Shown here: positions 5,339-47,598 of the stretch, piece by piece
How the letters are laid out: every line of letters begins with the position of its first letter
How positions within the stretch are numbered: position 1 is the first letter of the stretch
Source of the DNA: a phage
Reading direction: 5' to 3' (one strand)
NCBI GenBank assembly: GCA_029742005.1
Contig: GCA_029742005.1_4113.1
DNA length: 64,000 bases
Translations under genes and position numbers: made by a program
Notes under the pieces: model-generated
What the model was told of the DNA's origin: nothing
The model's input: only the letters and a program-made list of their open reading frames with translations
Database searches by the model: none

Positions 5339-5342
5339 ATCT

Positions 5343-13277: not shown

Positions 13278-13733
13278 ATGTTTAAGAATTTTATGGTTAT
13301 CGTAGCAGTACTGTTTGGTACATCATGTTTCATTTCCCCAGTACACGCAGAAGAACAACGTCAAACTATTAAAACTATTGGGACTGGTAAAACTCCCCCT
13401 AAACGTACTGCTGAAGAATACATGCCTGAAATGCGTGAACGTTATCGTCAGACATACAGGGAAAAACATGCTAATGATAAACCCATCAAGAAGCATAAAT
13501 GGGAAGTTGTTAAATCTCCTTCATTTTGTGCTGGATATGCTAAAGTAAAGATTGAGCAGCACAAAAAACAGTACTATAAAGATATGTATTACTTCTATGA
13601 CTCCAGAATTTCTGACACAGATATGATGGCAGGGAAGGTTGATAAAGAAGAATTTCTACAAGGCTATGATATGATGGACGATGACAAAATCATGGAATGC
13701 GTTGAAGTGTATGAAAAATACAGAGGCTTCTGA
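13278..13733 (+). CDS. secreted hypothetical protein
   Basis: Signal-peptide-like N-terminus MFKNFMVIVAVLFGTSCFISPVHA. Confidence 0.55.
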   Translation: MFKNFMVIVAVLFGTSCFISPVHAEEQRQTIKTIGTGKTPPKRTAEEYMPEMRERYRQTYREKHANDKPIKKHKWEVVKSPSFCAGYAKVKIEQHKKQYYKDMYYFYDSRISDTDMMAGKVDKEEFLQGYDMMDDDKIMECVEVYEKYRGF

Positions 13734-14209: not shown

Positions 14210-14250
14210 TATTATAATTAACACACCAAGTAACCCAAGGGGGATGGAAA

Positions 14251-14709: not shown

Positions 14710-14710
14710 T

Positions 14711-20568: not shown

Positions 20569-20847
20569 ATGTCTTTTTCTAAAGAAGAACGTGACCTTAT
20601 TAAAAAAGCAATTTGGTTTTATGCTAATGAAGGGAAGTGCGATGAAGAAAAAGCACGTGAACTGTGTAATATCCTTGAGAAGAAACAAGAACTGAAAGTG
20701 TTTCGTATCCGTGATTTGGATGAAGGGGATCGTATTGTCCTAGCTGAAACAAAAGAAGAAGCAGAACAAATCTTCACTGATAAAAACGAAAATCCACATT
20801 GGATGGAAGAAGTCTGTGATGTTAAAAAAGGTACTTATATCGATTGA
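20569..20847 (+). CDS. hypothetical protein
   Basis: ORF track with start moved to MSFSKEER. Confidence 0.5.
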   Translation: MSFSKEERDLIKKAIWFYANEGKCDEEKARELCNILEKKQELKVFRIRDLDEGDRIVLAETKEEAEQIFTDKNENPHWMEEVCDVKKGTYID

Positions 20848-20872
20848 CAGTACTGAATAATAGCAGTATAAT
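20844..20872 (+). promoter_or_regulatory. sigma-70-like early promoter (class A)
   Basis: TTGACAGTACTGAATAATAGCAGTATAAT, 17-bp spacer. Confidence 0.55.
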
Positions 20873-20965: not shown

Positions 20966-21274
20966 ATGTTTCAAACTAACACTCAAGGTTTTGTAATCAT
21001 CGATTTGAATCAAAACAGCGGTTATTGGATGAAACCTACTGACGCATGTATGCAGTTTGATTTCTTAGGTTACAGAATTAGTGTAAGTACTGGTGCTTCT
21101 GTACTGAGAGGTGGTTGTATCGTTGAACATCTGGTAACTGATCCAGAAGGTCGTGAGTATGAAATCGCAGGTTCAGTACAAGATGCCATTATGTTTGTAT
21201 GTCAGCGTGAAATGAATGGTTCGAATTCAAATGCACTGACTCATGCTCTTTCTCAAGAAGTGGAGGTTCGTTAA
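20966..21274 (+). CDS. hypothetical protein (102 aa)
   Basis: ORF track; GAGGAA RBS. Confidence 0.5.
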   Translation: MFQTNTQGFVIIDLNQNSGYWMKPTDACMQFDFLGYRISVSTGASVLRGGCIVEHLVTDPEGREYEIAGSVQDAIMFVCQREMNGSNSNALTHALSQEVEVR

Positions 21275-21519
21275 TGAAATATATTGTAGCAGTACTAATC
21301 GCTTTTCTACTCACTGCATGTGATGCTTCTACCAAAGAACGTACAAGTGATTTTGTTCTACCTGCTGAATTAAAAGAAGCAGGGTGTAAGATTTATCGTA
21401 TGCAACAAGATGGTGCTGGTGCGACTTTGTACACTGTGTACTGTCCTAATGCAAACACTTCTACGTCGCATACGAGTGGGAAAATTCGTATGAATACATC
21501 AGTGGTTCATGGAGAATAA
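21274..21519 (+). CDS. putative lipoprotein
   Basis: Signal peptide plus lipobox-like LLTAC (MKYIVAVLIAFLLTACDAS). Confidence 0.55.
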   Translation: MKYIVAVLIAFLLTACDASTKERTSDFVLPAELKEAGCKIYRMQQDGAGATLYTVYCPNANTSTSHTSGKIRMNTSVVHGE

Positions 21520-21521
21520 CA

Positions 21522-21890
21522 ATGAGTCTTGATACAACTCGTGCAGCAAATATCTTAGAACGTTTGAATGATGAAGAATATCTTGCTAATGCAAAATATC
21601 AGCTTGAAAAACTCATTCGAAATGTAAAATATGTTGATATCACTACACAGCTTCCACTAGATGAATATCATAAGCTAAACGAAAATATTGTATATCACCC
21701 AAATGAAATTTGGATTGAGTGGGAATCATGGACCCATTCGGTTCTCCGTATCGAGGGCTATTGTGTGAAATATGAAAGTTCACCAGGTGATTTTACAAAA
21801 AAACTGTCGATATTGTGCACTGACACACATGAAATAGTTGAGGTGAATTTGAATCATATGAAGGGTTGCCGTTGGGGAGATCTTAAATGA
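21522..21890 (+). CDS. hypothetical protein (122 aa)
   Basis: ORF track. Confidence 0.5.
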   Translation: MSLDTTRAANILERLNDEEYLANAKYQLEKLIRNVKYVDITTQLPLDEYHKLNENIVYHPNEIWIEWESWTHSVLRIEGYCVKYESSPGDFTKKLSILCTDTHEIVEVNLNHMKGCRWGDLK

Positions 21891-22162
21891 TTAAAAAACT
21901 ATTGACTGTGTTTGTTGTATTCTGTACAATGTTTCTTACAGCATGTAATGATGACGGCAGGTTTAGTGCAAAAGACTTAGTTCGTCAGGATTGTACATTC
22001 ACAGGCAAGTCTTTTATTAACGAGTATGAAATATGTACACAATCAGGTCGTATCTGTGGTGGTTGGGAAAAACGTCAGGAGCGATTGTATGTATATGAAT
22101 GCCCTGGACATCACAACAAAGTACTAAGCACACACAAACTTGTTTATGATAAGGTTGAATAA
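21887..22162 (+). CDS. putative lipoprotein
   Basis: Signal peptide plus lipobox-like FLTAC (MIKKLLTVFVVFCTMFLTACNDD). Confidence 0.55.
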   Translation: MIKKLLTVFVVFCTMFLTACNDDGRFSAKDLVRQDCTFTGKSFINEYEICTQSGRICGGWEKRQERLYVYECPGHHNKVLSTHKLVYDKVE

Positions 22163-22377
22163 TGACTACCAATGAAATGATGCAGGTTATTTGGGATAAA
22201 GGTTGTGATATTAAAATCACTAGTACTGATGTTCGTGTATTCAAAACTGAATATATGGAGTACTTGGATCTTGATACTTATAATAATATTGTATCAATCG
22301 AACACAAAGGTGCAGTACTGGAAACGATTGATGTAGTACTCAAGAAAGCTACCGACCTATTAGGAGTGGCAGTGTGA
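22162..22377 (+). CDS. hypothetical protein (71 aa)
   Basis: ORF track. Confidence 0.5.
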   Translation: MTTNEMMQVIWDKGCDIKITSTDVRVFKTEYMEYLDLDTYNNIVSIEHKGAVLETIDVVLKKATDLLGVAV

Positions 22378-22531
22378 ATAACAAAGAGTGGGAAGATTAC
22401 CGCAAGAAGTGCCGAGAGTTTGATAAAGAACTCACAGGTGCAGTGAACGCGGTAATGTGGGTATCTGCAATTATTGCAGTACTTGGTTTGGGTGCTATTA
22501 TTATTATTAATAAATTATTGTAAGGACTAAT

Positions 22532-22732
22532 ATGTTTACTTTATATCTTGCAGTAGTACTAACTAATGGTGAAATCACTCGCACCGTTGGTGAAGGTGTA
22601 TATAAAACACCTGAGCAGTGTTACTCTGCAACTCATTGGCCTCGTGATGCTGGTGATGAATCTCGCACTGAATACAAATGTATGAAGGTTAAAGGTGATT
22701 TTGTAAATCTAAAGGTTATTGAGACTAAGTAA
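22532..22732 (+). CDS. secreted small protein
   Basis: ORF track; hydrophobic N-terminus. Confidence 0.45.
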   Translation: MFTLYLAVVLTNGEITRTVGEGVYKTPEQCYSATHWPRDAGDESRTEYKCMKVKGDFVNLKVIETK

Positions 22733-23250
22733 TGGATATTAATGAGTTGTTGAAATTAGTGTTTAATCGTGAACGCCGCGATACAAGACCAATTGAATAT
22801 CAAGATGTGATACGCATTGAAACTGATTTCTGTTATGGTAAAACAACTCATGACCTTTTGAATCTCTCTGGAAAACGCTATGCTGATGTTTGTTTTTCAG
22901 AGAGAAGTGATGGTTCAGAAATAACGAGTACTGATATTGTTTGTTACGCACGCAGTGCTGATAAATCTTATGAAATAGAACTTATATATTCCCCTAGTTC
23001 TAAAACAAATCATCACCGCCATATTTTATATGATGTTTACACACCACCTGGTATTGCTGAATATTTTGTTATTGATTATAGTACTGAAGAAAATGTGTTT
23101 CAACAAAGTTTGATTCATAACTTTGAGGTGAATGATCCATTAGTACCAAAGTTGTTCAAACTACTTGACACCATAGATGTTGATTTTGAATTTGTTATGT
23201 GCATTAGAACTTCTTTATTCAATGAATTCATGGAACTTTTTAATATATGA
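22732..23250 (+). CDS. hypothetical protein (172 aa)
   Basis: ORF track. Confidence 0.5.
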   Translation: MDINELLKLVFNRERRDTRPIEYQDVIRIETDFCYGKTTHDLLNLSGKRYADVCFSERSDGSEITSTDIVCYARSADKSYEIELIYSPSSKTNHHRHILYDVYTPPGIAEYFVIDYSTEENVFQQSLIHNFEVNDPLVPKLFKLLDTIDVDFEFVMCIRTSLFNEFMELFNI

Positions 23251-23468
23251 ATAGATACTATGTTGTGTATGAACACGTCTCTGAATTTAATAACATACGC
23301 GGGTTTTCCAGAGTAGTCACCAAGATGGATGTATTCATTCGTGCTCTTAGTGAAGTAGATGCACTGTTTAAATTGTTTGATGAAATTACAAAGTATAACA
23401 CACCTAAAACACACCGCTATGTGGAAACTGTACATAGCATTATGCTAACTGAAAGTGATGAGGAATGA
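23247..23468 (+). CDS. hypothetical protein (73 aa)
   Basis: ORF track; coupled start. Confidence 0.5.
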   Translation: MNRYYVVYEHVSEFNNIRGFSRVVTKMDVFIRALSEVDALFKLFDEITKYNTPKTHRYVETVHSIMLTESDEE

Positions 23469-23471
23469 TAA

Positions 23472-23690
23472 ATGAATTTATATCTAGTTGAAGGTTTAGT
23501 ACAAGTCTATAAACCAGAAGGTGAAGGTCAACGTTTTTCACACGTAGAAGAATTTAAGTACGTTGTACAGGCTGATGGTCAGTACGATGCGGAAATTCAA
23601 GTAGATGAATCATTCCGTAAGAAAAATGAAATTGGTAAATTTCAATACCAGAACTTACAATATAAAGTATGGCCTAGTATAAATGACTAA
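23472..23690 (+). CDS. hypothetical protein (72 aa)
   Basis: ORF track. Confidence 0.5.
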   Translation: MNLYLVEGLVQVYKPEGEGQRFSHVEEFKYVVQADGQYDAEIQVDESFRKKNEIGKFQYQNLQYKVWPSIND

Positions 23691-23898
23691 GATGTGGTGG
23701 TGTCATGGTGTATATAACGTGTATGTAAATGGTAGATATAAAATGTCTAGTACCTATACAAGACGTGTTAATGCGAACAACCAAGTTGATGCTGCTTGTG
23801 AGATCATTGAGTGGTATGCTGAGTTCAATGCACCTGACTATATGTACGAAATAGTTACAATAAATGTTGTACAAATCGATACATCTTTGATACAATAA
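23683..23898 (+). CDS. hypothetical protein (71 aa)
   Basis: ORF track. Confidence 0.45.
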   Translation: MTKMWWCHGVYNVYVNGRYKMSSTYTRRVNANNQVDAACEIIEWYAEFNAPDYMYEIVTINVVQIDTSLIQ

Positions 23899-23929
23899 CC
23901 ACATCAAAAAATTGCATCTGAGGATACTT

Positions 23930-24592
23930 ATGTTAGTTAATCTTAATTTCATCACTTCACCTGACTGGGCATTACGTGGGGTTTCTTTAAACTTCAAGGA
24001 AACTATGTTTGATTACATTGGTGAGTGTACATTGGTAAATGCAACTTTTGACCCAAATCATCCGTTCTGGGCTGAAATTCATGATCCAACTGTAAACAAC
24101 AATACATCTGTTATGACTATTGTCCAGACTAAACATGCAGGTATCCTTGCAGGTTATCGATCTGCACATGCAATTGAACACTTCACTGATTACGATGTCG
24201 TGGATGAATACCCAATGATCCATGAAGATGGAAGTCTATACACATCTGAAGACTTCCGTGCTATCTTTAATAGTACTGATGATATTCTACCAAGTGGACG
24301 TCCACGTCCTGAGTCTTATCTTATGCATCCATCTTATGGTGTAGCAGATACGCTTGAACAGATTATGAATAAGTACAAGAACCTAATTGAAGGTCCAGAA
24401 GAAATTGTCCTGTGCTATCACCCAGTACTGAAGTCTGAACAACCAAAGGATGGTGGATGGCGTTGGCATAAGAATGGTGAGTATATCGGTACTAAACGAA
24501 GTAAAGAACGTTTTGAGTACTTGTATGATGAGCCAGATGTTGATGTGGTTTTGTGTTATAATTTTATTAAGGTGAAAAAGAAATGTATCTAG
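23930..24592 (+). CDS. hypothetical protein
   Basis: ORF track, start moved to MLVNLN with AGGATA RBS. Confidence 0.5.
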   Translation: MLVNLNFITSPDWALRGVSLNFKETMFDYIGECTLVNATFDPNHPFWAEIHDPTVNNNTSVMTIVQTKHAGILAGYRSAHAIEHFTDYDVVDEYPMIHEDGSLYTSEDFRAIFNSTDDILPSGRPRPESYLMHPSYGVADTLEQIMNKYKNLIEGPEEIVLCYHPVLKSEQPKDGGWRWHKNGEYIGTKRSKERFEYLYDEPDVDVVLCYNFIKVKKKCI

Positions 24593-24825
24593 TACTAAGT
24601 TTTGTTGTTGCACTATTGTTTATGTTTTATCCTACACTAGTAGCATTAGCCACTAAACGACCGATTGTAGATATCACTACTGTATTCTTGCTAAACGTGG
24701 CATTAGTACTGGTGTCTATTATCATTCCAGTGAGCTTTACAGTTATTGATATTATTTCGGTATTACTCTTCGTGTTAAGTTATCTTATGCTTATTGAAGA
24801 AACAAATGTTGACAAACGTTCGTAG
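24583..24825 (+). CDS. small integral membrane protein
   Basis: ORF track; two hydrophobic helices. Confidence 0.5.
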   Translation: MYLVLSFVVALLFMFYPTLVALATKRPIVDITTVFLLNVALVLVSIIIPVSFTVIDIISVLLFVLSYLMLIEETNVDKRS

Positions 24826-24836
24826 TACTGTATAAT
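24809..24836 (+). promoter_or_regulatory. sigma-70-like promoter (class A-like)
   Basis: TTGACAAACGTTCGTAGTACTGTATAAT. Confidence 0.5.
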
Positions 24837-24882
24837 GGTTCCTGTAGTCTGAAACTTAACACTTAAACTTGAGGTAAAAAAT

Positions 24883-25209
24883 ATGCTATCAGTACTAATT
24901 TCAATTCCGTCTTTAATTCTGATTTGGCTTCTGGTTTACGAATGCTTTATTACTGATGATAATGATAAAAAAGAGTTCTCTGAGTTGTTTATGCTTGATT
25001 CACCAATTGTACGTATTTTCTATACAGTCGTTGTGGTTTCAGTAATTGTATGGGTTTTGAGTTTTATCTTCCCACTCGGTGCAGTAGTTAAAACTTTGGA
25101 TTTGGTTGAGAACTTTGTTGCAATTATGTGGCTAATTAAAGCACTATTTGCAGGAAATGTTAAAATTTGGATTGATATTATCAAATTCAAGTTCACGAAT
25201 AAGATGTAA
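24883..25209 (+). CDS. integral membrane protein
   Basis: ORF track; hydrophobic segments. Confidence 0.5.
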   Translation: MLSVLISIPSLILIWLLVYECFITDDNDKKEFSELFMLDSPIVRIFYTVVVVSVIVWVLSFIFPLGAVVKTLDLVENFVAIMWLIKALFAGNVKIWIDIIKFKFTNKM

Positions 25210-25287
25210 CAGTCAAAATACCTCTATAGTATTAAATACTTCTGTACATATATATAGTACAGAAGTATTTCTCGTTAGAGGTTTGTT

Positions 25288-25647
25288 ATGAAAAGTTATA
25301 TAAAATTAATAGCACTTGTGTGTGCATTATTTTCATGTTTTAGTTATGGTGCAGCAGCAGAAACATATTGTCGTAGTACTAAGGGAACGTGGCATGTATT
25401 GACTAACGACCCTAGAAATGGTAAAAATATAGTTGTTGATGGTGTGATTTATCGTTTTAAAGTAGAAAGTATTATCGGTAATAAAAAAATCTCGACTTAT
25501 AGAGATGATTCTGGTACATTAGCAAACGTAATATTAATTGTAGACCCAAGAACTGGTAATGGTGATATCTATATAGTAATTTACTTGGACTCATCGGTAC
25601 GCCGTGACCTAGATATAGATAAATTGAACTTACACTGTGAAATATAG
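25288..25647 (+). CDS. secreted protein, paralog of 26039..26389
   Basis: Signal peptide MKSYIKLIALVCALFSCFSYGAAAE. Confidence 0.55.
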   Translation: MKSYIKLIALVCALFSCFSYGAAAETYCRSTKGTWHVLTNDPRNGKNIVVDGVIYRFKVESIIGNKKISTYRDDSGTLANVILIVDPRTGNGDIYIVIYLDSSVRRDLDIDKLNLHCEI

Positions 25648-25658
25648 GACTTAAAAAA

Positions 25659-26036
25659 ATGGTAAACACTATTTTACTTTTGTTGTTGAATATTCCAATT
25701 ATTCTGTCTTTTTTAATTTCTATTTTTATGGCAGGATATTGTTTAGTTGCAGTAATTCATTTCATTTTAACAAACAAATATGTCCTAATTTCTAAGCTTG
25801 ATTCTATTTTTGCTTGCGATTCGATTGCTTATAACTTGTGGTTAATTTGTTCTTGCATTATGGGAGTAACTTTCCTTCTGTATGTATTTGATGTCCTTGA
25901 CCAAAAGTTCGTATATATCAGTACTGGATTGGCTCTTTATCCTGCTACGTGGTACTTGATTTACGTTGGTGATATATGGTATAGTACTTATAAAGAATAT
26001 CAGTACAAGAAATCACTTAACGTTGGAGGAAAATAA
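25659..26036 (+). CDS. integral membrane protein
   Basis: ORF track; hydrophobic segments. Confidence 0.5.
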   Translation: MVNTILLLLLNIPIILSFLISIFMAGYCLVAVIHFILTNKYVLISKLDSIFACDSIAYNLWLICSCIMGVTFLLYVFDVLDQKFVYISTGLALYPATWYLIYVGDIWYSTYKEYQYKKSLNVGGK

Positions 26037-26038
26037 TC

Positions 26039-26389
26039 ATGAAAATTATTTTATTTTTTGTATGTATGTTAATGTGTGGATTGTCATATGCTGAACCATT
26101 GGAAGGTTTAGTTTGTACAGATGGTAATATTAAACATATCTATCAAGGTGATAGTGACGATCGAGATATTGTATATATTGATGGACAATCATATACGTTT
26201 GTTAAAGAGCATACAGTAGGCGACATTAGCTTCACTGAGTTTTCTAACGACACAGACCCTAACTTCTTAGCGTTTATTGAAGTAGATGTATATGAAGATA
26301 GTAATGGCACACAATATGCTAAATTAGTTATGATGCGTCGTGGTGCTAAAGAAACTAGTTTTGGTGGCTTGTGTAAATATAAGGATTGA
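26039..26389 (+). CDS. secreted protein, paralog of 25288..25647
   Basis: Signal peptide MKIILFFVCMLMCGLSYAEP. Confidence 0.55.
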   Translation: MKIILFFVCMLMCGLSYAEPLEGLVCTDGNIKHIYQGDSDDRDIVYIDGQSYTFVKEHTVGDISFTEFSNDTDPNFLAFIEVDVYEDSNGTQYAKLVMMRRGAKETSFGGLCKYKD

Positions 26390-26393
26390 TATT

Positions 26394-26585
26394 ATGTTGA
26401 TTTATCAAAGTGATAATATTCGTGTTATGCAGCATCCCTACTTACAAATCTTTGATGTGCAGCAGTATATGGAAGGTGATGACCCAAGAACCTATGGTCG
26501 TAAGTATGATTACTTCACTGTAAAGCAGTGTAAAAATATTAACGAAGTACGACAATTAGTTCAAGAACTTCAAAACAAAGGTTGA
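26394..26585 (+). CDS. hypothetical protein
   Basis: Internal ATG after AAGGA RBS (MLIYQSDN). Confidence 0.45.
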   Translation: MLIYQSDNIRVMQHPYLQIFDVQQYMEGDDPRTYGRKYDYFTVKQCKNINEVRQLVQELQNKG

Positions 26586-26611
26586 CTTCGGTCAGCCTTT
26601 TTTGTTATAAT
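26580..26611 (+). promoter_or_regulatory. combined terminator-like stem-loop and sigma-70-like promoter (class B cassette)
   Basis: GGTTGAC-TTCG-GTCAGCC hairpin plus T-run; TTGACT inside the stem, TATAAT 17 bp downstream. Confidence 0.6.
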
Positions 26612-26639
26612 TCTCTTAATAAATTAGAGGATTTTAATT

Positions 26640-27080
26640 ATGTATGTATATCGTTTTGAACTTAAATTTAGTTACATTGAACCTAACTTAGATCCTGCAC
26701 GAACTGTAGGTCCGTTTGCACGGTATTCAACCAGATACAGTACTAAAAATGGATTTGACCGTTTGCTCATGACTACACCTTCTCAATTCCAACCTGAACC
26801 AACTGAGGATGGGATCTATTCAATCAAAAGTGGATGGGTATTTGGCTGTCAAAGTTTGAAAGATTTGTTCAGATTCTTCACTATGGACTTAGGTAAATTG
26901 CATCGTGCTGGGTTTGCTATATCTGTATATGAAGTTCCAGACCACCATGTAGACATTGGTCGTAATCAGGTTCAGTACTATTGCGGTAGTGCTAAATTAG
27001 TTCGTATCATGTCAGTTAAGGAAGCAAAGGATGAGTTCCGACAAAGTAAAAGAGAAACAAATGAGGTAATATATGGATAA
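26640..27080 (+). CDS. hypothetical protein (146 aa)
   Basis: ORF track; AGAGGA RBS. Confidence 0.55.
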   Translation: MYVYRFELKFSYIEPNLDPARTVGPFARYSTRYSTKNGFDRLLMTTPSQFQPEPTEDGIYSIKSGWVFGCQSLKDLFRFFTMDLGKLHRAGFAISVYEVPDHHVDIGRNQVQYYCGSAKLVRIMSVKEAKDEFRQSKRETNEVIYG

Positions 27081-27417
27081 AACTCAAATAGAATTAAAGA
27101 AATTTGTTTCATTCTATCTTCCTGATGACCCACGTAATTCACAAAAAGATATTGAATATTATAATATCCTATCTAAACAGTTAATGAGAAAGTTTCAACA
27201 GTGTTTAACAATATTCAATACAGATGGAAGACGTAGATACCGAATCGTTTCAATGAATGATGAAAACGCAAATTTCTTTGATTACGATGTGGTTTTTAGA
27301 GCATATAATGATGATCGTATAAAATTAAATTATGATCAAATTATACTTGACCTGAATGTTATATGTGTTATAATCACTCACGTAGCCGAACTTAATGGTT
27401 TTAAAGAATGGTATTGA
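27073..27417 (+). CDS. hypothetical protein (114 aa)
   Basis: ORF track. Confidence 0.5.
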   Translation: MDKTQIELKKFVSFYLPDDPRNSQKDIEYYNILSKQLMRKFQQCLTIFNTDGRRRYRIVSMNDENANFFDYDVVFRAYNDDRIKLNYDQIILDLNVICVIITHVAELNGFKEWY

Positions 27418-27431
27418 ATAGAGGATAACAT

Positions 27432-27698
27432 ATGAAGCTTAAATTACAATATAATGGATTTACTTTACGTAATGATACTGAATTTATTAATCGTTCTCCT
27501 GGTGCTGAACTGTTTTTACGAGAGATGAACATTCCTTTCATCATTACTACAGTGGGCGACCGTGAAGTTCTACAATACGCAGAGCATCCGATCATTGATG
27601 TTCCTTGGTACTCTGAGCATATGTACATGGATATGGCACGTCGCTACAACTGTAAGTTCGTAGTTGAAGGTGATAAAATTACAGTCGAATTTAAATAA
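27432..27698 (+). CDS. hypothetical protein (88 aa)
   Basis: ORF track; AGAGGA RBS. Confidence 0.5.
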   Translation: MKLKLQYNGFTLRNDTEFINRSPGAELFLREMNIPFIITTVGDREVLQYAEHPIIDVPWYSEHMYMDMARRYNCKFVVEGDKITVEFK

Positions 27699-27709
27699 GG
27701 TAAATTAAA

Positions 27710-28003
27710 ATGATCAGTACTTCAGTTAATGAAAGCATCGTCGCTGACGTAGAAATGGTTAAAGAATGTGCAGATGAAACTCTTCGTGATATGTACATTA
27801 ATGATTTAATTACTGAATACGGTAGTCGTGGTGTACACGAATTTATTCGTTTAAGTGGAGAGTTGATGAAAAATCGAATTCGTATGAAGCTTAACGTACA
27901 TCCAAAAGCATGGGCATTTACATTAAAATACGCAGAAGATATTGTGAATTTGCGTCGAACTGAAGTATATGAACGTTTGCACAATGGTATGTTAGATAAA
28001 TGA
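27710..28003 (+). CDS. hypothetical protein (97 aa)
   Basis: ORF track. Confidence 0.5.
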   Translation: MISTSVNESIVADVEMVKECADETLRDMYINDLITEYGSRGVHEFIRLSGELMKNRIRMKLNVHPKAWAFTLKYAEDIVNLRRTEVYERLHNGMLDK

Positions 28004-28055
28004 TTGTAAAATAGGAATTCTTAAATGAATTCCTTTTTGTTTATAAGGTATAGTA

Positions 28056-28277
28056 ATGAAATATATAGTACTTGTACTGATATTATTCAGTACTGTTGTA
28101 AGTGCTAAACAAAAAGAATATGTTAAATGTATAAATTATGAAGAGAAATATGTTGAAACATATAAAAAAAGTATAATTAAAAACGTTTCGATTACTAACA
28201 GAGCAACAATCATTGTACTTAAAAATGGGTTAATTATGCTATATAAACCACACGTTAAATGTGAAATTATTAATTGA
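28056..28277 (+). CDS. secreted small protein
   Basis: Signal peptide MKYIVLVLILFSTVVSA. Confidence 0.5.
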   Translation: MKYIVLVLILFSTVVSAKQKEYVKCINYEEKYVETYKKSIIKNVSITNRATIIVLKNGLIMLYKPHVKCEIIN

Positions 28278-28284
28278 GGAAATT

Positions 28285-28857
28285 ATGAATCGTAAAGGTC
28301 GTTTTAAAGTATCAAAAAAGAACAAAAGTTCTAGGTTTAAACCTATTGTTTTAACAGTTAAATCTAACAAAGATTTAACTGCACTTAGTAAAAAGATAAT
28401 TTCATCTAAGATTGAAGTATCATACGTAAATTCATTAAAATATATGAATGTCAAACCACTGGACCAACTCATTTCACTTATATTTGAACGTAATGATTTT
28501 GAGATATCAGTAGATGATTATAGAGCCTATAATGCTGGTTTCATTAATGTTACTTGTAATAAAAAACTAACTGAGTTGGAAAATTTGTCATGTATAATAA
28601 ATCTAGATAAAGGTGTTGTGAAGTACCATTTTGTACATTTCACTAATATCAATAATGGAATGGGTGTACAATCCAGACCTATAGTGCCTACATGTGATGT
28701 TACTAAATTAGCAAAGCTCAATGATGAAGAATATTTTCAAGAAAGTATTGTGACTGAGCATTTAGATGATATAATAGCTACTTACAAAGAGTGCATATGG
28801 GTTTTGAATTCTATAAAGCCTAAATTGTGTTTAATGAATATTGTTCGTGATTTATGA
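28285..28857 (+). CDS. hypothetical protein, C-terminal EEYFQESIVTEHL motif family
   Basis: Internal ATG after GAGGAA RBS. Confidence 0.5.
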   Translation: MNRKGRFKVSKKNKSSRFKPIVLTVKSNKDLTALSKKIISSKIEVSYVNSLKYMNVKPLDQLISLIFERNDFEISVDDYRAYNAGFINVTCNKKLTELENLSCIINLDKGVVKYHFVHFTNINNGMGVQSRPIVPTCDVTKLAKLNDEEYFQESIVTEHLDDIIATYKECIWVLNSIKPKLCLMNIVRDL

Positions 28858-28870
28858 ATGGGGAATCGTA

Positions 28871-29314
28871 ATGAGTTGGGTAAATGTTAATAGTATTGAA
28901 CTTAACGAACAAGATATTTTTGCATTTGTAAATTTAACCAATAATACAGTACTAAAAGGGCGTTTGTTCAGTGCGAGTGATGGATATAAATGGATCTCTT
29001 TGATGGATGATAGTGGTGTGATTTATAATGTAATGCAATTACCCCAATGGGTATATAGTAACACTGCCGACGATGTTCTTGCCGCAGTTATGCGTGAGTT
29101 TGAAAAACTCCCAGGTGGTGATATCAAAAACAAAGTTTTTAATGCAGAACGGAAAAATTATACAGCACAGCAGTTGGAATCCCTTGCCATTGCTGCTTAT
29201 CAAGCTGCTATTAAGAAGCCAGAGTGCGTTATTCTTAAGTATGTACCAGACTTAAAACTTACGTTGGAAGACATGGATGCATTCATTTTTACATCTGAAC
29301 TTGATCAGTACTAA
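28871..29314 (+). CDS. hypothetical protein
   Basis: Internal ATG (MSWVNVN). Confidence 0.5.
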   Translation: MSWVNVNSIELNEQDIFAFVNLTNNTVLKGRLFSASDGYKWISLMDDSGVIYNVMQLPQWVYSNTADDVLAAVMREFEKLPGGDIKNKVFNAERKNYTAQQLESLAIAAYQAAIKKPECVILKYVPDLKLTLEDMDAFIFTSELDQY

Positions 29315-29429
29315 TTTAACTTTGGGACAACCATTCTTATTATGATATAATGTTTTATGTCATTCGATATAAATGACAACGGAACTATAAATATTATAGT
29401 AAAATTTATCTCTTATAGGAGTTATAAAA

Positions 29430-29813
29430 ATGGTTGATAAATGGAATAAGAAAGATCCATCACATGATGTTGATATTTCTGGTCTAGACAATGCACATAA
29501 GCACAAGTATCTAGATTCACTAGGTCTTCTAAAACCAGACCAAAGTCTTGCACATGATCGTCCATCCCGTGAAAAAGCATTTAGCCTAGAATCACTAGGT
29601 CATGAGCTTAATCGTGTGTTTGAGGATCACCCAATCTATGTACGTGATATTATCGAGAAACTTAAAGTAACTCCTAAAGAGCACTTTAAAGCAACTGTAC
29701 ACTCTGCATTCCGTGCATTACATGAATCTCTAAAGAAAACTCACAATCTTCGTAAAATTCATGATGAAATCGTGAATGCAATCGAAAGTGAAAAACATAA
29801 GTTCAAGAAGTAA
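29430..29813 (+). CDS. hypothetical protein, shares LGLL N-terminal motif with 31120..32364
   Basis: ORF track; AGGAG RBS. Confidence 0.55.
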   Translation: MVDKWNKKDPSHDVDISGLDNAHKHKYLDSLGLLKPDQSLAHDRPSREKAFSLESLGHELNRVFEDHPIYVRDIIEKLKVTPKEHFKATVHSAFRALHESLKKTHNLRKIHDEIVNAIESEKHKFKK

Positions 29814-29821
29814 TAAAAAGG

Positions 29822-29858
29822 GGTTGACTTCGGTCGGCCTTTTTTTATATAGTAAATA
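29822..29858 (+). promoter_or_regulatory. terminator-like stem-loop with embedded TTGACT (class B cassette, weaker -10)
   Basis: GGTTGAC-TTCG-GTCGGCC plus T-run, then TATATA. Confidence 0.5.
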
Positions 29859-29891
29859 TATGAAATAATAAAGATTCAGGGATTATATTTC

Positions 29892-31076
29892 ATGGCTAGT
29901 GGGATACGATTAACACAAGAAGAAGCTGAAAAATTAGTAGCGAATAGATGTTTAGAAGAAAATTATACATATAAACCTTTCACTTATATTAACACTAAAA
30001 CAATATTAGAACTTAAATGTGATAACTTTGAACATGAAGAATGGAAATGTAAATTTAGTAAATTCATTTACAAAAGAACTGGGTGTCCAGAATGTAAAGG
30101 AAGAAATTCTTTAAAAGAAAAAACAGCAAGAACTAAAGTTCATGAAATATGTGAATTAAAAGGATATACTTATGAACCATTTGATTTTAACGGTGCTATA
30201 GGAACAAAAATAATAATTCATTGTGGAGTTGACTCTCATAAACCACATGAAACTAATTATAATTCTTTAGTTAATAAGAAAAATGGATGTATTGAATGTG
30301 GTGGAAAGTTAAAATTAACCCAACAACAAGCAGAATTAAATGTAATTAACATATGTAATACTACTGGATATACTTATAAACCTTTTGAATATAAAAATAA
30401 TAGAACTAAAATTACATTAAAATGTTGCAATCCCGACCATGATGAATTTAGTTTAAGTTATGATAAATTTGTATATCAAGGTAATGGGTGTGTAAAATGT
30501 GGAAATCAATCTACAGCTAGAAAACTTTGTCTTTCGCAAGATGAATCAATTAAAAGGCTTAATGAAATTTGTACATCTAAAGGATATACTTATAAACCAT
30601 TTATATATAAAAATGTACATACATTAATTACATTAAAATGTTCAGAATGTGAACATCCTGAATGGACAACTCGATATCAAAATATTGTTCAAAAGCAACG
30701 AGGTTGTCCAAGTTGTAGTCGAGGTGGATATGACCCAAATAAACCTGGTTATTTTTATATACATCGAGTTCTAGGTAATGGTAGGATATATTATAAATTT
30801 GGTATAACAAACAATTATATATACAGATTTGAACAATATAATAAGAATTTATTTAGAACTGAAAAATATAAAACATATTACAGTACTAATGGTATTTTAA
30901 TCAAAGAACTTGAATATTTTATTAAACATATGAGTGGCATAAAAAGAAAAGTTATTGATAAAATAAATTATTTAGATGGGTATACTGAAACAATCAATGA
31001 ATCAGAATATGAAAAATTAATAAAAATAATTGAATCATATAATGTACAAGAACTTGATGTGAACAGTATTAAGTAG
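29892..31076 (+). CDS. protein with four tandem zinc-ribbon repeats and C-terminal T5orf172/GIY-YIG-like domain
   Basis: Four ~65-aa repeats each with GYTYKPF and CxxC pairs; C-terminal GYFYIHRV...YYKFGITNN. Confidence 0.6.
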   Translation: MASGIRLTQEEAEKLVANRCLEENYTYKPFTYINTKTILELKCDNFEHEEWKCKFSKFIYKRTGCPECKGRNSLKEKTARTKVHEICELKGYTYEPFDFNGAIGTKIIIHCGVDSHKPHETNYNSLVNKKNGCIECGGKLKLTQQQAELNVINICNTTGYTYKPFEYKNNRTKITLKCCNPDHDEFSLSYDKFVYQGNGCVKCGNQSTARKLCLSQDESIKRLNEICTSKGYTYKPFIYKNVHTLITLKCSECEHPEWTTRYQNIVQKQRGCPSCSRGGYDPNKPGYFYIHRVLGNGRIYYKFGITNNYIYRFEQYNKNLFRTEKYKTYYSTNGILIKELEYFIKHMSGIKRKVIDKINYLDGYTETINESEYEKLIKIIESYNVQELDVNSIK

Positions 31077-31119
31077 TATAATAAATAATAATATATTTTA
31101 TGCTAAAGGAGGGCACACG

Positions 31120-32364
31120 ATGCCTAGTGATTATAATAATGGTGATATGAAGCACAGAAATGGTGCAATTGTTCAACATTCAAAACGCAAGTCGGAGTAC
31201 CGCCCTGCTGGAAACTATCATAGTGGTAGAAAAATGAGTCGTAACCAAAGCACTGGTGCACAAGGTGTAGAAAATGCAAAGCCGGGTGAAGTAACAGATA
31301 CTTCCAAAATGAATCAACATGAAAAATTAAAATACATGAATGCTTTGGGATTACTTAATGCTCATCAAAAAGAGCAACTAGCTGCAATGGATAAAGCACA
31401 AGAACGTCCAGAAGCAGCAGAAGCCCCCGCACAATCAAAAGCGACTAACCCTGTCAAAGAACTGTCTGATAAGTTAGGTAAGATTTTTGCTAATAAACCA
31501 CAACTTATCCAAGGTATTGTGAAAGAATTGCAATCTGTACCTAAAGAAGAATTAAAAGTCAAAGCACAAGCTGTACTTGATGCAATGAGTGGAAATACCA
31601 GTACTGAACCAACTGAAGTATTCAGTACTATAATGCGTGCACTTGAAGGTACGCAACAAGGTGATGTGCCTGCACAAGAGGAAGTAAGTCTTGAAAGCGT
31701 ACTTAAAACATTTGATAGTATTGGTAAAGAAGACCGTGCTAATGCTCAACAAGTTAAGAATGTACTAGCTAAGTTAGAAAACCGTCTGGAAGGTAAAGAC
31801 GATAAGATTAAATTAGTATCTGATGCAGTTAACGATGCACTTAAATCTTATGTACAAGGTGAAAAGAGTCGTTTTGTAACTGCAATGGATGCTGCATTCA
31901 ATACTATGAAAAAGTATGAAGCTGATCATGGTGAGAAGGTTACACGAGATGGTTATCTGATGCGTGATGATGAAGAAGGTGCAGTAGAACAGAATGATGT
32001 TCATTCAGACGAAGAAATTGATGACATGGAAGCTGAACTGTCACAAGACCGCCAAATGACTGAAAAATCCCATAACGAACTACAGAAATTAATGCAATGG
32101 GTTGCAGATGTTGGTGAAAAAGCTGGTGCTGATAAGAAGAGTATAAACCGAAATCTTAGTTGGATTAAAGATAAAGTTGGTAACAACGCTCGTAAACTAC
32201 AAAAAGCGTGGACTGATGTAGTGAATGGTGCTGTTGACATTGATGTTGAATCCGGTGAGGCATATGATTATGCATTGACTACACTTGATGACTCTTTCCG
32301 TGATTACGAAAATGGAAATGTAACTCCTTGGGAAAAGGATATCATGAGCAAATACGGTAAATGA
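31120..32364 (+). CDS. hypothetical acidic protein (414 aa)
   Basis: ORF track; AAGGAGGG RBS. Confidence 0.6.
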   Translation: MPSDYNNGDMKHRNGAIVQHSKRKSEYRPAGNYHSGRKMSRNQSTGAQGVENAKPGEVTDTSKMNQHEKLKYMNALGLLNAHQKEQLAAMDKAQERPEAAEAPAQSKATNPVKELSDKLGKIFANKPQLIQGIVKELQSVPKEELKVKAQAVLDAMSGNTSTEPTEVFSTIMRALEGTQQGDVPAQEEVSLESVLKTFDSIGKEDRANAQQVKNVLAKLENRLEGKDDKIKLVSDAVNDALKSYVQGEKSRFVTAMDAAFNTMKKYEADHGEKVTRDGYLMRDDEEGAVEQNDVHSDEEIDDMEAELSQDRQMTEKSHNELQKLMQWVADVGEKAGADKKSINRNLSWIKDKVGNNARKLQKAWTDVVNGAVDIDVESGEAYDYALTTLDDSFRDYENGNVTPWEKDIMSKYGK

Positions 32365-32374
32365 TAAAACAAAA

Positions 32375-32406
32375 GGTTGACTTCGGTCAGCCTTTTTTTT
32401 GTAAAT
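32375..32406 (+). promoter_or_regulatory. terminator-like stem-loop with embedded TTGACT (class B cassette)
   Basis: GGTTGAC-TTCG-GTCAGCC plus T8. Confidence 0.55.
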
Positions 32407-32436
32407 ACAAAAGAGGAATTAAGAAGAGGGATTACA

Positions 32437-32688
32437 ATGAAAAAATATATTATATTTGGAATTGTATTATTTTCCAGTACTACTTATGGTGCAGATTATC
32501 ATTGCTCCGTAGCAAGGCAGGATTTCAGAAATGGGGAGTTCTATACTACCTCATACACAAAAGGAATAATACACGACACCGACAGAACTATTGGATTTAA
32601 TGCGTTTGACAACAAAGATTCATATACTTCAGGTATACTATCTGAGCGTAAGACGGATGTACTCGGAATAGAAAAAGAGTTTCGGTGA
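32437..32688 (+). CDS. secreted small protein
   Basis: Signal peptide MKKYIIFGIVLFSSTTYGA; internal ATG after AGAGGG RBS. Confidence 0.5.
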   Translation: MKKYIIFGIVLFSSTTYGADYHCSVARQDFRNGEFYTTSYTKGIIHDTDRTIGFNAFDNKDSYTSGILSERKTDVLGIEKEFR

Positions 32689-32698
32689 TTCCGTGGCA

Positions 32699-33022
32699 AT
32701 GTGTAATGACATTGAAAGTACTAAAAAAATTTATTATAATAATGAAATAAATTATCGTTTTCATAATTTAACCACAAATAAAAGTTTACTATTTTACAAT
32801 TGTAAAGAAGTAAAATTCCCACCAGACAATAGCTGTACTCCAACTAATCAACCCCCAGCACAATGTAATACTCCCTCTGAACCTGATAAAAATAAAAAAG
32901 ACAAAGATAAAGATAAAAAAGAAGACAAAAAACCTTTAAAAGATAAAAAGAAAGATAAAAAACCTAATCCGTTTAAAAATAATAAACCAGCACAACCCGA
33001 TATGACGTGTAAAATAAAATAA
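32699..33022 (+). CDS. hypothetical Lys/Asp-rich low-complexity protein
   Basis: ORF track; KDKDKDKKEDKKPLKDKKKDKKPNP tract; start uncertain. Confidence 0.4.
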   Translation: MCNDIESTKKIYYNNEINYRFHNLTTNKSLLFYNCKEVKFPPDNSCTPTNQPPAQCNTPSEPDKNKKDKDKDKKEDKKPLKDKKKDKKPNPFKNNKPAQPDMTCKIK

Positions 33023-33031
33023 GGATATAAA

Positions 33032-33451
33032 ATGAAAAAGATTTTTTTAAGTATTATTTTAGTACTTTTTAGTTTTAATGTATATGCAGCAGATGCTAAA
33101 CAGGTTGCTAATACAGTAAAAGATGTTATAGTAGACAATGCTCCTACCTTAGAGGAAATTGGGGTAAAAACTTGTGATATTGTAATATATAATTTAGTTA
33201 ATGATGAACGAGTTATGTTGAATACGTATGAACAAGTAGTCCCATTGGTTGAATCTGGTGCTGCTTTTAGCTTTACATATAAAGTTAAATTAACAGGAGG
33301 GGTTGAAGTTAATCTTGACATTGATACCGCTTCAGTACTAAAAGATAAACTAGGATATGTGTTCAATCGTATTCGTGAAGAAGGTCATCTTAAGTATGTT
33401 TATGAAAGTAAAATACTAAAACGTGCAATAGTTATAGAAAACTGTAAATGA
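33032..33451 (+). CDS. secreted protein
   Basis: Signal peptide MKKIFLSIILVLFSFNVYAADA. Confidence 0.55.
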   Translation: MKKIFLSIILVLFSFNVYAADAKQVANTVKDVIVDNAPTLEEIGVKTCDIVIYNLVNDERVMLNTYEQVVPLVESGAAFSFTYKVKLTGGVEVNLDIDTASVLKDKLGYVFNRIREEGHLKYVYESKILKRAIVIENCK

Positions 33452-33460
33452 TAATAAAAG

Positions 33461-33492
33461 GGTTGACTTCGGTCAGCCTTTTTTGTTATGAT
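33461..33492 (+). promoter_or_regulatory. terminator-like stem-loop with embedded sigma-70-like promoter (class B cassette)
   Basis: GGTTGAC-TTCG-GTCAGCC-TTTTTTG-TTATGAT. Confidence 0.55.
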
Positions 33493-33520
33493 GTTGATAT
33501 TAACTACAGAGGATAAAGTA

Positions 33521-34162
33521 ATGACTAAGCAAGAAATATTCAAAACTTTAATTGACATTTTGCGTCCATCAAAAACTCGTTGTGCGATGGAGTTTGATAT
33601 TCCTTATGCTGAACGCGTAATCTTTCCACAAGTTAAAGCTGCTGGACTTACTTTGCTTGGAATGGGGATGTACTCTGTAGTAGTTGAACATAAAAACTAT
33701 CCTGGGCGTGCATTTAAAGTAACCACTTCACGCTGGGATGGTTTTCGTGCTTATGCAATGTACTGCATTGAAAACGCAGGAACCAAGTTTCTTCCAGTGA
33801 TCTACAGTGCAAACGAACAAGGAAACTTTGGATGGTATGAGATGGACAAGTACTATCCTATAATTAAACAAAAAAATAATTATGATGACTTTGTTAGTAC
33901 TAAAATTGGAGATTTATATTCTTATGCACATGCTGGTCAGTATGCTACTTCAGTGAATGATATGCGTGGAAATTCTGAAGAGATTGCTATTGCGACGGTC
34001 GCTGCTAACATCATGAAAGAGTTTCACGGGCGTTTTGTACCAGACATTCATTCCAGTAATGTCATGATGGATAAAGATGGCAATGTATTCATTACTGATC
34101 CTCTTTCGTGTGATGTACGTAGAGAAATACCAGTTACTGAAGAAGATCCAGTTTTTTATTGA
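33521..34162 (+). CDS. protein kinase-like fold protein
   Basis: Catalytic-loop-like DIHSSNVMMDKDGNVFITDP; start at internal ATG after AGAGGATAAAG. Confidence 0.5.
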   Translation: MTKQEIFKTLIDILRPSKTRCAMEFDIPYAERVIFPQVKAAGLTLLGMGMYSVVVEHKNYPGRAFKVTTSRWDGFRAYAMYCIENAGTKFLPVIYSANEQGNFGWYEMDKYYPIIKQKNNYDDFVSTKIGDLYSYAHAGQYATSVNDMRGNSEEIAIATVAANIMKEFHGRFVPDIHSSNVMMDKDGNVFITDPLSCDVRREIPVTEEDPVFY

Positions 34163-34508: not shown

Positions 34509-34847
34509 ATGGAACAATATTTTGAATTAATAAACAAAGTATCATTTTATGTAGTATCTTTGGTTTGGGTGTATTATATGTTTTGCTACATTATTGCATT
34601 CTTCCGATACACTACTTTATATGAACGTATCTACTATGATGCCCCAATTTCATTCTTGATGTTTTGTGCATGTACGTGGGGAATATTAGAAGTACTGATA
34701 TGTGGGTATAGTACTGATGAATTAAATCTGGTATCGGTGTTGACTGGGTTTTCATTTGTTGTTATGATAGCTGCCGTTCCAGTATGGTTGTTCTTTGGAC
34801 TAGTTCATCGCATTGATATATGGCGTTCTAATATCCCTGAAAAGTAA
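34509..34847 (+). CDS. small 3-TM membrane protein, array member
   Basis: Three hydrophobic helices; C-terminal RSNIPEK. Confidence 0.55.
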   Translation: MEQYFELINKVSFYVVSLVWVYYMFCYIIAFFRYTTLYERIYYDAPISFLMFCACTWGILEVLICGYSTDELNLVSVLTGFSFVVMIAAVPVWLFFGLVHRIDIWRSNIPEK

Positions 34848-34850
34848 GGA

Positions 34851-35198
34851 TTGGTAATGATTTATTACACTAACATGTTTGCCTATGCTGTTGCTTGCAT
34901 TTACATTGTTTACTTCTTATTCGGTGGAGTACTGTGCTTCTTTAAGTACAAAACGTTGTTCAACCGAATGTACCCAAATCATCCAATTGTAGTTGTACTT
35001 TTGATTCTTTCAGTTTCTCAAATAATCGTTGAAACTACAATGGGTATCAGTAGTGTACATTATAGTTTTGGTACTATAGTAATTATTACTATGCTTATTG
35101 CATACATTTTAGTACTTGGATATGGTATCTTTGGTAATATTGGTATGAAAATGTATCATCGAATTAAAACATTACGTGATAATCTACCGGAGCGTTGA
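34851..35198 (+). CDS. small 3-TM membrane protein, array member
   Basis: Paralog; C-terminal RDNLPER. Confidence 0.55.
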   Translation: MVMIYYTNMFAYAVACIYIVYFLFGGVLCFFKYKTLFNRMYPNHPIVVVLLILSVSQIIVETTMGISSVHYSFGTIVIITMLIAYILVLGYGIFGNIGMKMYHRIKTLRDNLPER

Positions 35199-35199
35199 T

Positions 35200-41286: not shown

Positions 41287-41287
41287 C

Positions 41288-41650: not shown

Positions 41651-41651
41651 T

Positions 41652-44373: not shown

Positions 44374-44444
44374 AATTCCTCCTTTATTCATTATACTATA
44401 TTTAATACAAAAAGAAAAGCCAGTACAGAGTACTGGCCTATATT

Positions 44445-45164: not shown

Positions 45165-45218
45165 TATAATATATTTAATACAAAAAAGAAAAGCCAGTAC
45201 TCTGTACTGGCTTTTACA

Positions 45219-47588: not shown

Positions 47589-47598
47589 AATTCTCTCC

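Follow-up and report, generated by a model that had tools for sequence, protein, structure and literature searches.

Small proteins that are produced early in infection and exported are a familiar type of phage gene. In phage T4, DNA entry is blocked by Imm, a small protein of the inner membrane, and Spackle (gp61.3, Sp) is a helical protein. Spackle has been described as a periplasmic protein that acts on an incoming phage by inhibiting its tail lysozyme (PMC7677548, PMC7650644), and Llp of phage T5 is made shortly after infection (bioRxiv 10.64898/2026.03.26.714494; PMC9586334). Here, we describe positions 21274-33451 of a 64,000-nucleotide stretch of phage DNA (NCBI GenBank assembly GCA_029742005.1, contig GCA_029742005.1_4113.1; hereafter the window), which encode two lipoproteins, five secreted proteins of the signal peptidase I (SPase I) type, and four small membrane proteins. 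Genes are named by the window position of their first nucleotide. It is very likely that these are genuine small proteins exported by the host, which are concentrated in an early region driven by sigma-70 promoters and are neither virion nor spanin components. The complete reading, in which such early exported proteins alter or guard the envelope, most likely through superinfection exclusion at a periplasmic or inner-membrane step, is more tentative (probability about 0.4).

The window belongs to an Asteriusvirus jumbo coliphage (121Q/PBECO4-like), whose host is Escherichia coli. A megablast search with positions 21000-34000 returned 49 phage records, with Escherichia Asteriusvirus at the top (96-98% identity) and SHEFM2K, 121Q, PBECO4, phAPEC6, and G17 among the best matches. 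The window is AT-rich (~33% GC), and small plus-strand genes are densely packed until ~42 kb. The range 21274-33451 corresponds to 121Q genes 175-204, nearly all of which are annotated as 'hypothetical', the exceptions being two 'virion structural proteins' (29430-29813 and 31120-32364). A phage sigma-factor gene is located just upstream of the region and a gene for a T7 gp0.7-like protein kinase just 3' of it. When all candidates and their neighbours were searched against Pfam, NCBIfam, and PHROGs, a known function was returned only for the virion proteins, the kinase, and an endonuclease; the exported proteins matched no family of known function in these databases, and their PHROG matches are families of unknown function. 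In the literature, no paper discussing these genes was found, and the Sharanji and fEgEco12 papers do not mention them.

Export Signals and Their Clustering

Export was called by rules based on the charge of the n-region, the length and hydrophobicity of the h-region, the -3/-1 (AXA) rule, and the lipobox. For the Sec/SPase I pathway, the n-region had to be positive and the h-region uncharged, with a length of 7-15 residues or a little above, and positions -3 and -1, within ~15-30 residues of the N-terminus, had to be occupied by small residues. For lipoproteins (SPase II/Lgt), the h-region had to end in a lipobox [LVI][ASTVI][GAS]C whose Cys is approximately residue 15-35, and a basic residue was required near the N-terminus. 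The first pattern was found in 25288, 26039, 28056, 32437, 33032, and 13278, and the second, which predicts lipidation, in 21274 and 21887. A first-pass annotation of this DNA had listed at least eight open reading frames (ORFs) with signal peptides, and the scan was positive for all eight, seven of them within the range and one (13278) outside; both of the proteins to which it had ascribed a lipobox carry LTAC. The start coordinates that it named were all correct, and a Shine-Dalgarno-like motif lies 5-10 nt upstream of each gene. Its description of the product of 32699 as a low-complexity protein with KDK repeats also holds, and this protein has no hydrophobic N-terminus and hence is not exported.

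The signal peptides are kept in the orthologues from fEgEco12, Turkey5, and RaK2 at 31-78% identity. In addition, four of the five SPase I proteins possess a pair of Cys residues, the second of which lies 2-5 residues from the C-terminus, which suggests disulfide-stapled periplasmic domains. The hydrophobic N-termini might otherwise represent uncleaved membrane anchors, or the ORFs might be chance ones, and there would then be no cluster of secreted proteins. The export prediction is purely rule-based, and three of the genes were not called by the annotators of phAPEC6, as this explanation would have it. It is nevertheless very improbable, because the n/h/c architecture with AXA or lipobox is kept in orthologues at 35-78% identity, all of the genes have ribosome-binding sites and PHROG families, the h-regions (8-18 residues) are too short for most transmembrane (TM) anchors, and the mature domain of 25288 is modelled confidently as a soluble barrel.

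The concentration of these genes that the first-pass annotation proposed is above chance. Exported soluble proteins and lipoproteins account for 7 of the 31 genes in the range and for 1 of the other 85 plus-strand genes (Fisher p=3.6e-4), where genes were counted by greedy ORF calling (~116 plus-strand ORFs in the window), so that the numbers are approximate. A scan statistic with a freely placed 31-gene window, which allows for boundaries chosen post hoc, gave p=0.007. Four small membrane proteins (22374, 24583, 24883, and 25659) are encoded in the same stretch. The cluster is not one tight operon but a loose grouping of at least four transcription units, between which genes for cytoplasmic proteins are located.

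Promoters and Expression Timing

The plus strand of the window contains ten perfect TTGACA-N16/17-TATAAT promoters versus 0.1 expected (Table 1). Sites with at least 11 of 12 sigma-70 matches number 24 on this strand, versus 2.6 expected, and four on the minus strand. The host-type promoter signal is very strong all through the region of small genes. A 22-nt hairpin, AAGGTTGACTTCGGTCAGCCTT, occurs in six plus-strand copies (26578, 29820, 32373, 33459, 38101, and 38684; none expected). It forms a terminator stem that carries the -35 box TTGACT and is followed by a T-run and often by a -10 box, and it reads as a combined terminator/promoter punctuation element. Matches to it were detected by blastn in CBB, where it is named 'redundant repeat', and in GAP32, where it is named 'terminator'. 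Another terminator-like hairpin (28013-28034) precedes 28056.

A related phage, CBB, has its RpoD-like promoters concentrated where short ORFs are grouped, and this region was interpreted as the early one (PMC5259590). Because of the consensus sigma-70 promoters, this parallel in CBB, and the sigma-factor gene nearby, early expression of the region by host RNA polymerase is suggested as a well-founded reading of the promoter consensus. With regard to the virion, the proteome of phAPEC6 particles includes the neighbours gp035c and gp037c and none of the exported proteins (PMC7247149).

Table 1. Positions, strand, and sequence characteristics of the genes and regulatory elements discussed. A slash marks the predicted cleavage site; percentages for RaK2 are identities of the orthologue.
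Feature	Position	Strand	Characteristics
Lipoprotein 1, 81 aa	21274..21519	+	MKYIVAVLIAFLLTA/C, lipobox LTAC, Cys16, +2 Asp; phrog_902
Lipoprotein 2, 91 aa	21887..22162	+	...MFLTA/C, lipobox LTAC, Cys20, +2 Asn; phrog_31263
Tail-anchored membrane protein, 49 aa	22374..22523	+	One C-terminal hydrophobic segment; phrog_38271, family of unknown function
Membrane protein, 80 aa, first gene of module	24583..24825	+	Three predicted TM segments; RaK2 43%
Multi-pass membrane protein, 108 aa	24883..25209	+	3-4 TM segments; phrog_31401; RaK2 29%
Secreted protein, 119 aa	25288..25647	+	SYG/AAA or AAA/ET, cleavage at about residues 21-24; Cys28 and Cys117; RaK2 31%
Multi-pass membrane protein, 125 aa	25659..26036	+	3-4 TM segments; phrog_31707; RaK2 22%
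Secreted paralogue of 25288, 116 aa	26039..26389	+	SYA/EP; Cys26 and Cys112; RaK2 42%
Secreted protein, 73 aa	28056..28277	+	VSA/KQ; Cys25 and Cys69
Secreted protein, 83 aa	32437..32688	+	TYG/AD
KDK-repeat low-complexity protein, 107 aa	32699..33022	+	No export signal; co-transcribed between two secreted-protein genes
Secreted protein, 139 aa	33032..33451	+	VYA/AD; Cys48 and Cys138
Secreted protein, 151 aa, outside the range	13278..13733	+	VHA/EE
Perfect promoters (consensus scan)	e.g., 5028, 12344, 14190, 15552, 20496, 20844, 24809, 36190, 59507, 62072	+	
Sigma-70 promoter	20844..20872	+	TTGACA-17-TATAAT, 12/12 match; in the gap that precedes gene 20966 and the lipoprotein genes
Sigma-70 promoter	24809..24836	+	TTGACA-16-TATAAT, perfect; upstream of 24883 and the membrane/secreted module
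Terminator hairpin	26577..26611	+	AAAGGTTGACTTCGGTCAGCCTTT, stem with -35 TTGACT, then TATAAT; closes the module and restarts transcription
Second terminator/-35 hairpin copy	32371..32396	+	Between virion-protein gene 31120-32364 and 32437
Third hairpin copy	33459..33480	+	Ends the 32437-33451 unit, ahead of the protein-kinase gene

The phrog_902 Lipoprotein and Its Database Labels

The product of 21274 is the only exported protein of the region with a broad family. Its mature part comprises ~65 aa with a conserved Cys38-Cys57 pair, and that of the family comprises ~62 aa. By tblastn, it was detected in 569 of 50,697 phage records (~1% of sequenced phage genomes), including Vibrio phages, Felixounavirus/Ounavirinae, Vequintavirinae such as CR3, a schitovirus, and the Serratia jumbo phage BF, and an exhaustive HMMER search gave 227 representatives at 50% clustering. 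The lipobox is present in 151 of 157 homologues, Cys38 and Cys57 are invariant, and the family motif is Y-x-L-P-x-E-L-x-D-C-K-x-Y...V-V-R-C-P-N-S-x-T-x-T....G-K. In other phages, the phrog_902 gene is surrounded by small genes of the early/replication region and never lies beside tail-fibre or lysis genes. Aspartate at position +2 is found in the Asteriusvirus clade and in 47 members of the family overall. According to the Lol-avoidance rule of E. coli, a lipoprotein with Asp at +2 is retained in the inner membrane. On this basis, the predicted location of 21274 is the periplasmic side of the inner membrane.

The labels on orthologues of 21274 differ: 'Cor superinfection exclusion protein' in vB_Ec-M-J, 'lytic conversion lipoprotein' in fEgEco12, and 'putative spanin' in PhiImVa-1. 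The fEgEco12 record also puts 'lytic conversion lipoprotein' on the orthologues of 21887 and of the non-lipoprotein 32437. The Cor PHROG (phrog_1119) is weakly matched by 32 of 116 family members (best E=2e-5), most likely due to the signal peptide, and a spanin PHROG is weakly matched by 13 of 116. An identification as Cor was rejected after hhalign of the 116-sequence profile with T1 Cor covered only 19 columns within the signal peptide; moreover, T1 cor adjoins tail genes, and the 21274 gene is not beside tail-fibre or receptor-binding genes. T5 Llp was rejected likewise, a profile search of the PDB reaching 8a60_B only at residues 1-18 (E=3.6). The AlphaFold2 model of 21274 is moderate (predicted local distance difference test, pLDDT, 68) and contains a small beta-sheet, and a Foldseek search of the PDB with this moderate-quality model gave nothing with E<3 and no Llp-like match. 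The Cor, Llp, and spanin labels are judged to be artefacts of signal-peptide similarity, because alignment to Cor and Llp is confined to the signal peptide and there is no fold match. A precomputed Pfam tag (PF16225) on close homologues of 21274 was not reproduced by hmmscan even at E<=10 and was ignored.

A spanin role for 21274 or 21887 was also rejected. The spanins of 121Q lie elsewhere, and the neighbours 20966, 21522, and 22162 have no N-terminal TM segment, so that none is an i-spanin. Genes 511/512 were curated as the spanins of 121Q/PBECO4; they lie at ~245 kb, at a distance of ~150 kb (PMC6139136 supplement).

It was also observed that 21274 and its neighbour 21522 (window 21274-21890) are allelic mosaics among phages that are otherwise 97-100% identical. 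For instance, 21522 shares 100% identity with SHEFM2K and only 65% with 121Q, phAPEC6, and fEgEco12, while the flanking genes share 97-100%, which suggests a hotspot of recombination or replacement.

The Other Lipoprotein and the Secreted Orphans

The lipoprotein encoded by 21887 is restricted to Asteriusvirus and has four further Cys residues in its mature part. Its Turkey5 orthologue (35% identity) has the lipobox LTGC and Asp at +2 and keeps all four mature Cys. The product of 21887 is probably sent to the outer membrane. Paralogy with 21274 was considered on account of a short common motif ('LYVYECP'-like) and rejected, since hhalign aligns the signal peptide only.

The 28056 protein has an orthologue of 49% identity in fEgEco12, and the Turkey5 locus holds a non-homologous protein with a signal peptide instead. 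The start of 32437 was fixed at the ATG at 32437, not at that of the longer ORF annotated in some records, because a terminator hairpin lies immediately upstream; neither 32437 nor its fEgEco12 orthologue (g556), which is labelled 'lytic conversion lipoprotein', has a lipobox. The fastest-diverging gene of the region is 33032, with 41-42% identity in fEgEco12 and Turkey5 versus 81-95% for its neighbours. These orthologues retain signal peptides (MLKVIFRSISSLLLMISSVCYA/NE and MKKTILSVIGTVLFMVTSVASA/AT), and a homologue search among 5.8 billion proteins returned only close, near-identical relatives. In phAPEC6 (MK817115), the orthologues of 21274, 21887, and 25288 were left unannotated (775-1023, 1391-1663, and 4709-5158).

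A Five-Gene Module of Membrane and Secreted Proteins

The genes 24583-26389 form a module with the order TM, TM, signal peptide (SP), TM, SP. Its synteny extends across all the Asteriusviruses examined and to Klebsiella phage RaK2 (ORF263-267), as seen in a tblastn matrix of six relatives. The paralogy of 25288 and 26039, as put forward in the first-pass annotation, is weak in pairwise comparison (22% identity, E=4e-6) and was established by aligning the family together with intermediates from RaK2. In this alignment of eight sequences, two Cys and two Asp residues are invariant, and the common pattern is N-D-G/D-P-x-N/I-D-G-x-x-Y-x-F. Only 20 clusters of this family were found in 5.8 billion proteins, all from Rak2-like phages. 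For 25288, AlphaFold2 with the family alignment gave a mean pLDDT of 82 (>90 over most of the mature domain) and eight beta-strands after the signal helix, and both paralogues are predicted to be disulfide-stapled eight-stranded beta-barrels.

The fold matches of 25288 are generic, since Cap15, Tp0751, OmpA-like proteins, and designed barrels score the same as or above PliC. For PliC/MliC, there was no Pfam match in 21 family members and no sequence match in the PDB, so that the resemblance of the modelled barrel is one of general architecture only. A fold search of BFVD returned uncharacterised relatives only. The three membrane proteins of the module, when compared, showed no detectable mutual similarity. 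Membership in the barrel family was rejected on comparison for 28056 and 32437, and fEgEco12 g554 gave only a weak hint of it (E=0.0012, probability 20%).

The module probably consists of pairs of a membrane protein and a periplasmic protein that work together, the candidate pairs being 24883 with 25288 and 25659 with 26039; extra TM and SP pairs that fEgEco12 and Turkey5 carry at these loci may be of the same kind. Such pairs of small periplasmic and small multi-pass membrane proteins would also suit a control of lysis timing, in which antiholin or holin regulators of the T4 RI/RIII-on-T type sense the periplasm and delay lysis by a membrane-tethered endolysin of the signal-anchor-release (SAR) type. 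The Rak2-like endolysin gp532 of 121Q combines an N-terminal TM domain with a lysozyme domain (PMC5259590), and a PliC-like barrel could in principle restrain a lysozyme. An involvement in lysis timing is improbable, given that the genes are distant from the spanin and endolysin loci, the promoters are of the early and not the late type, and PHROG and Pfam searches gave no similarity to RI, RIII, or holin families.

Divergence and Gene Turnover

Relative to fEgEco12, the exported proteins of the region share a mean identity of 69% and the membrane proteins 70%, whereas 17 cytoplasmic neighbours average 86% (Mann-Whitney p=0.018 and 0.012, respectively). The lowest identities (41-49%) belong to 33032, 28056, and 25659. 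In both fEgEco12 and Turkey5, additional TM and SP genes are present at the same places, and loci have been refilled by non-homologous SP or TM genes. In fEgEco12, a TM and SP pair occupies the site of the endonuclease gene of the window, and its SP member weakly hints at the barrel family. Such turnover fits proteins that may be in conflict at the cell surface.

Rapid diversification and replacement of genes at the same locus are also seen in anti-defence genes, and the exported proteins might serve host takeover or counter-defence at the envelope and not be directed against other phages, for instance by inhibiting membrane-associated effectors of abortive infection or defence, the sensing of envelope stress, the formation of outer-membrane vesicles, or uptake systems. 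Early expression, as judged from promoter context, would suit this role; the region contains a sigma factor and the T7 gp0.7-like kinase, both classic takeover genes, and the phrog_902 lipoprotein is found among early/replication-region genes of many unrelated virulent phages. On the other hand, the proteins have no similarity to known anti-defence proteins (PADLOC was not searched), and the evidence is circumstantial and the same as that for exclusion, with no discrimination between the two. Takeover is considered rather unlikely.

The endonuclease gene (29892-31076) encodes a protein of 394 aa in which CapR/treble-clef zinc-finger modules are repeated and the C-terminal part is an endonuclease (phrog_681/559). 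By tblastn, it is absent at this position in 121Q, SHEFM2K, phAPEC6, fEgEco12, and Turkey5, and it shares 65% identity with RaK2 ORF274 ('endonuclease') at the same relative site. From this distribution, it looks like a sporadic insertion of the homing-endonuclease type. The adjacent gene 31120-32364 encodes the phAPEC6 virion protein gp035c, which is annotated as 'chromosome segregation protein' and is unusually variable among near-identical phages (67-83% identity, partial coverage). It has an N-terminal domain family (phrog_16530) in common with the smaller virion protein 29430-29813.

A Proposed Role at the Envelope

The reading that we favour is that the exported proteins act on the envelope of the infected cell. 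Host RNA polymerase would transcribe the region early, and the host Sec/Lol machinery would export its products soon after infection. The lipoprotein 21274 would then be found on the periplasmic face of the inner membrane and 21887 in the outer membrane, together with five soluble periplasmic proteins and four small membrane proteins. These would alter or guard the envelope, either through superinfection exclusion at the periplasmic or inner-membrane step or through protection against outside attack. A function of this kind is plausible from localisation, timing, and evolutionary rate. The first-pass annotation had pointed to superinfection exclusion or envelope modification, and this stands as far as the character of the genes is concerned: conserved export signals, host-type promoters, and proteins that are neither virion nor spanin components are as expected of envelope-acting accessory proteins like Sp and Imm of T4 or Llp of T5, a conclusion that is supported here. 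The part that did not stand is a link to a known exclusion family.

Several points weigh against the exclusion role. Searches of PHROG, Pfam, and NCBIfam and profile comparison gave no homology to Cor, Llp, or annotated exclusion or immunity families. The Asp at +2 of 21274, which predicts the inner membrane, does not fit the masking of an outer-membrane receptor, and the genes are not beside those of receptor-binding proteins. The modelled 25288 fold matches eight-stranded barrels in general. Small proteins may be under relaxed constraint, and this, and not an arms race, could account for the faster divergence. In addition, the early timing is read from promoter consensus, the signal peptides were called by rules and not by SignalP/LipoP, and the background of the enrichment is the 64-kb window of a genome of ~350 kb.

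A more specific proposal, which is unlikely as a whole, joins two ideas: the TM/barrel pairs would be a new two-component envelope system of Rak2-like jumbo phages, and phrog_902 a widespread inner-membrane factor of exclusion or counter-defence. A PliC-like periplasmic barrel, held or regulated by its small inner-membrane partner, might neutralise the tail lysozyme of superinfecting phages or the DNA-entry step, and the two-component system might be a convergent analogue of T4 Imm/Sp with different folds that diversifies by duplication. The phrog_902 lipoprotein, with ~570 phage genomes in at least five unrelated virulent lineages, might act as the exclusion or counter-defence factor at the inner membrane.

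Other Genes in the Window

A second small envelope-directed group (13278-15555) lies behind the perfect promoter at 12344 and includes, besides the secreted protein 13278, the membrane proteins 13733, 14711, and 15130 (a signal-like N-terminus and three TM segments). Tandem arrays of three genes at 34509-35544 and seven genes at 39584-42023 encode membrane proteins of ~104-123 aa, most with three predicted TM segments, whose sizes and N-terminal patterns suggest families of paralogues. On the minus strand, 43204-54803 contains nine to ten tandem genes for proteins of ~370-396 aa with the N-terminus MLPFVRMFDYGN... in common, and one 239-aa gene without this motif; their products may be the 'DNA condensation proteins' of phAPEC6, which were detected in the virion. 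The plus-strand interval 54882-58868 is a mini-protein paralogue array of ~15 tandem genes (48-84 aa) with similar N-termini (M-N/K-..-K-E-F-Y...). Finally, seven tRNA genes are present at 376-5414: Gly, three Ser (one with the unusual anticodon ACT), Met, Asn, and Thr.

Implications

The genes themselves were already present in public genomes as hypothetical proteins. What is new is the demonstration of their clustering, the TM/SP module shared with RaK2 and its predicted barrel fold, the size of the phrog_902 family, and the finding that the Cor, Llp, and spanin labels do not hold. Phages of the Rak2/121Q jumbo group are under development for therapy, and >80% of their genes are without known function. 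The region shows where such a phage concentrates its envelope-directed early proteins, and the targets that it offers are the five-gene module common to E. coli and Klebsiella jumbo phages, the lipoprotein family, and the fast-evolving secreted orphans. If any of these proteins does exclude other phages, there would be consequences for the combination of phages in cocktails. The 'Cor', 'Llp', and 'spanin' labels that these genes carry at present should not be propagated.

Comparison with Known Systems

The lipoproteins 21274 and 21887 resemble T5 Llp and the Cor proteins of T1, phi80, and N15 in that all are small phage lipoproteins of ~60-70 aa in mature form. However, T5 Llp acts on FhuA from the inner leaflet of the outer membrane, whereas 21274 is predicted to reside in the inner membrane and 32437 has no lipobox. 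Rz1-type o-spanins are likewise small phage outer-membrane lipoproteins, and one homologue of 21274 is annotated as 'putative spanin'; their genes lie within, overlap, or adjoin the i-spanin gene in the lysis cassette, whereas 21274 and 21887 have no i-spanin neighbour and an early-type promoter context.

With regard to lysozyme inhibitors, 25288 shares only 4-5% sequence identity with PliC/MliC and has no Pfam MliC match. A lysozyme-family protein is present in the virion of phAPEC6 (gp241). T4 Imm and Spackle showed no similarity in sequence, and neither was matched in PHROG, Pfam, or NCBIfam at family cut-offs. The prediction for 25288 is an all-beta barrel, in contrast to the helical Spackle, and the genes described here are adjacent and duplicated. 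The likeness to Imm and Spackle would thus be one of function between unrelated proteins, and T5 Llp would serve as an analogue only for an outer-membrane lipoprotein. As in T4, these would be small early envelope proteins of a virulent myovirus, and the pairing of membrane and periplasmic proteins in the 24583-26389 module is reminiscent of Imm and Spackle.

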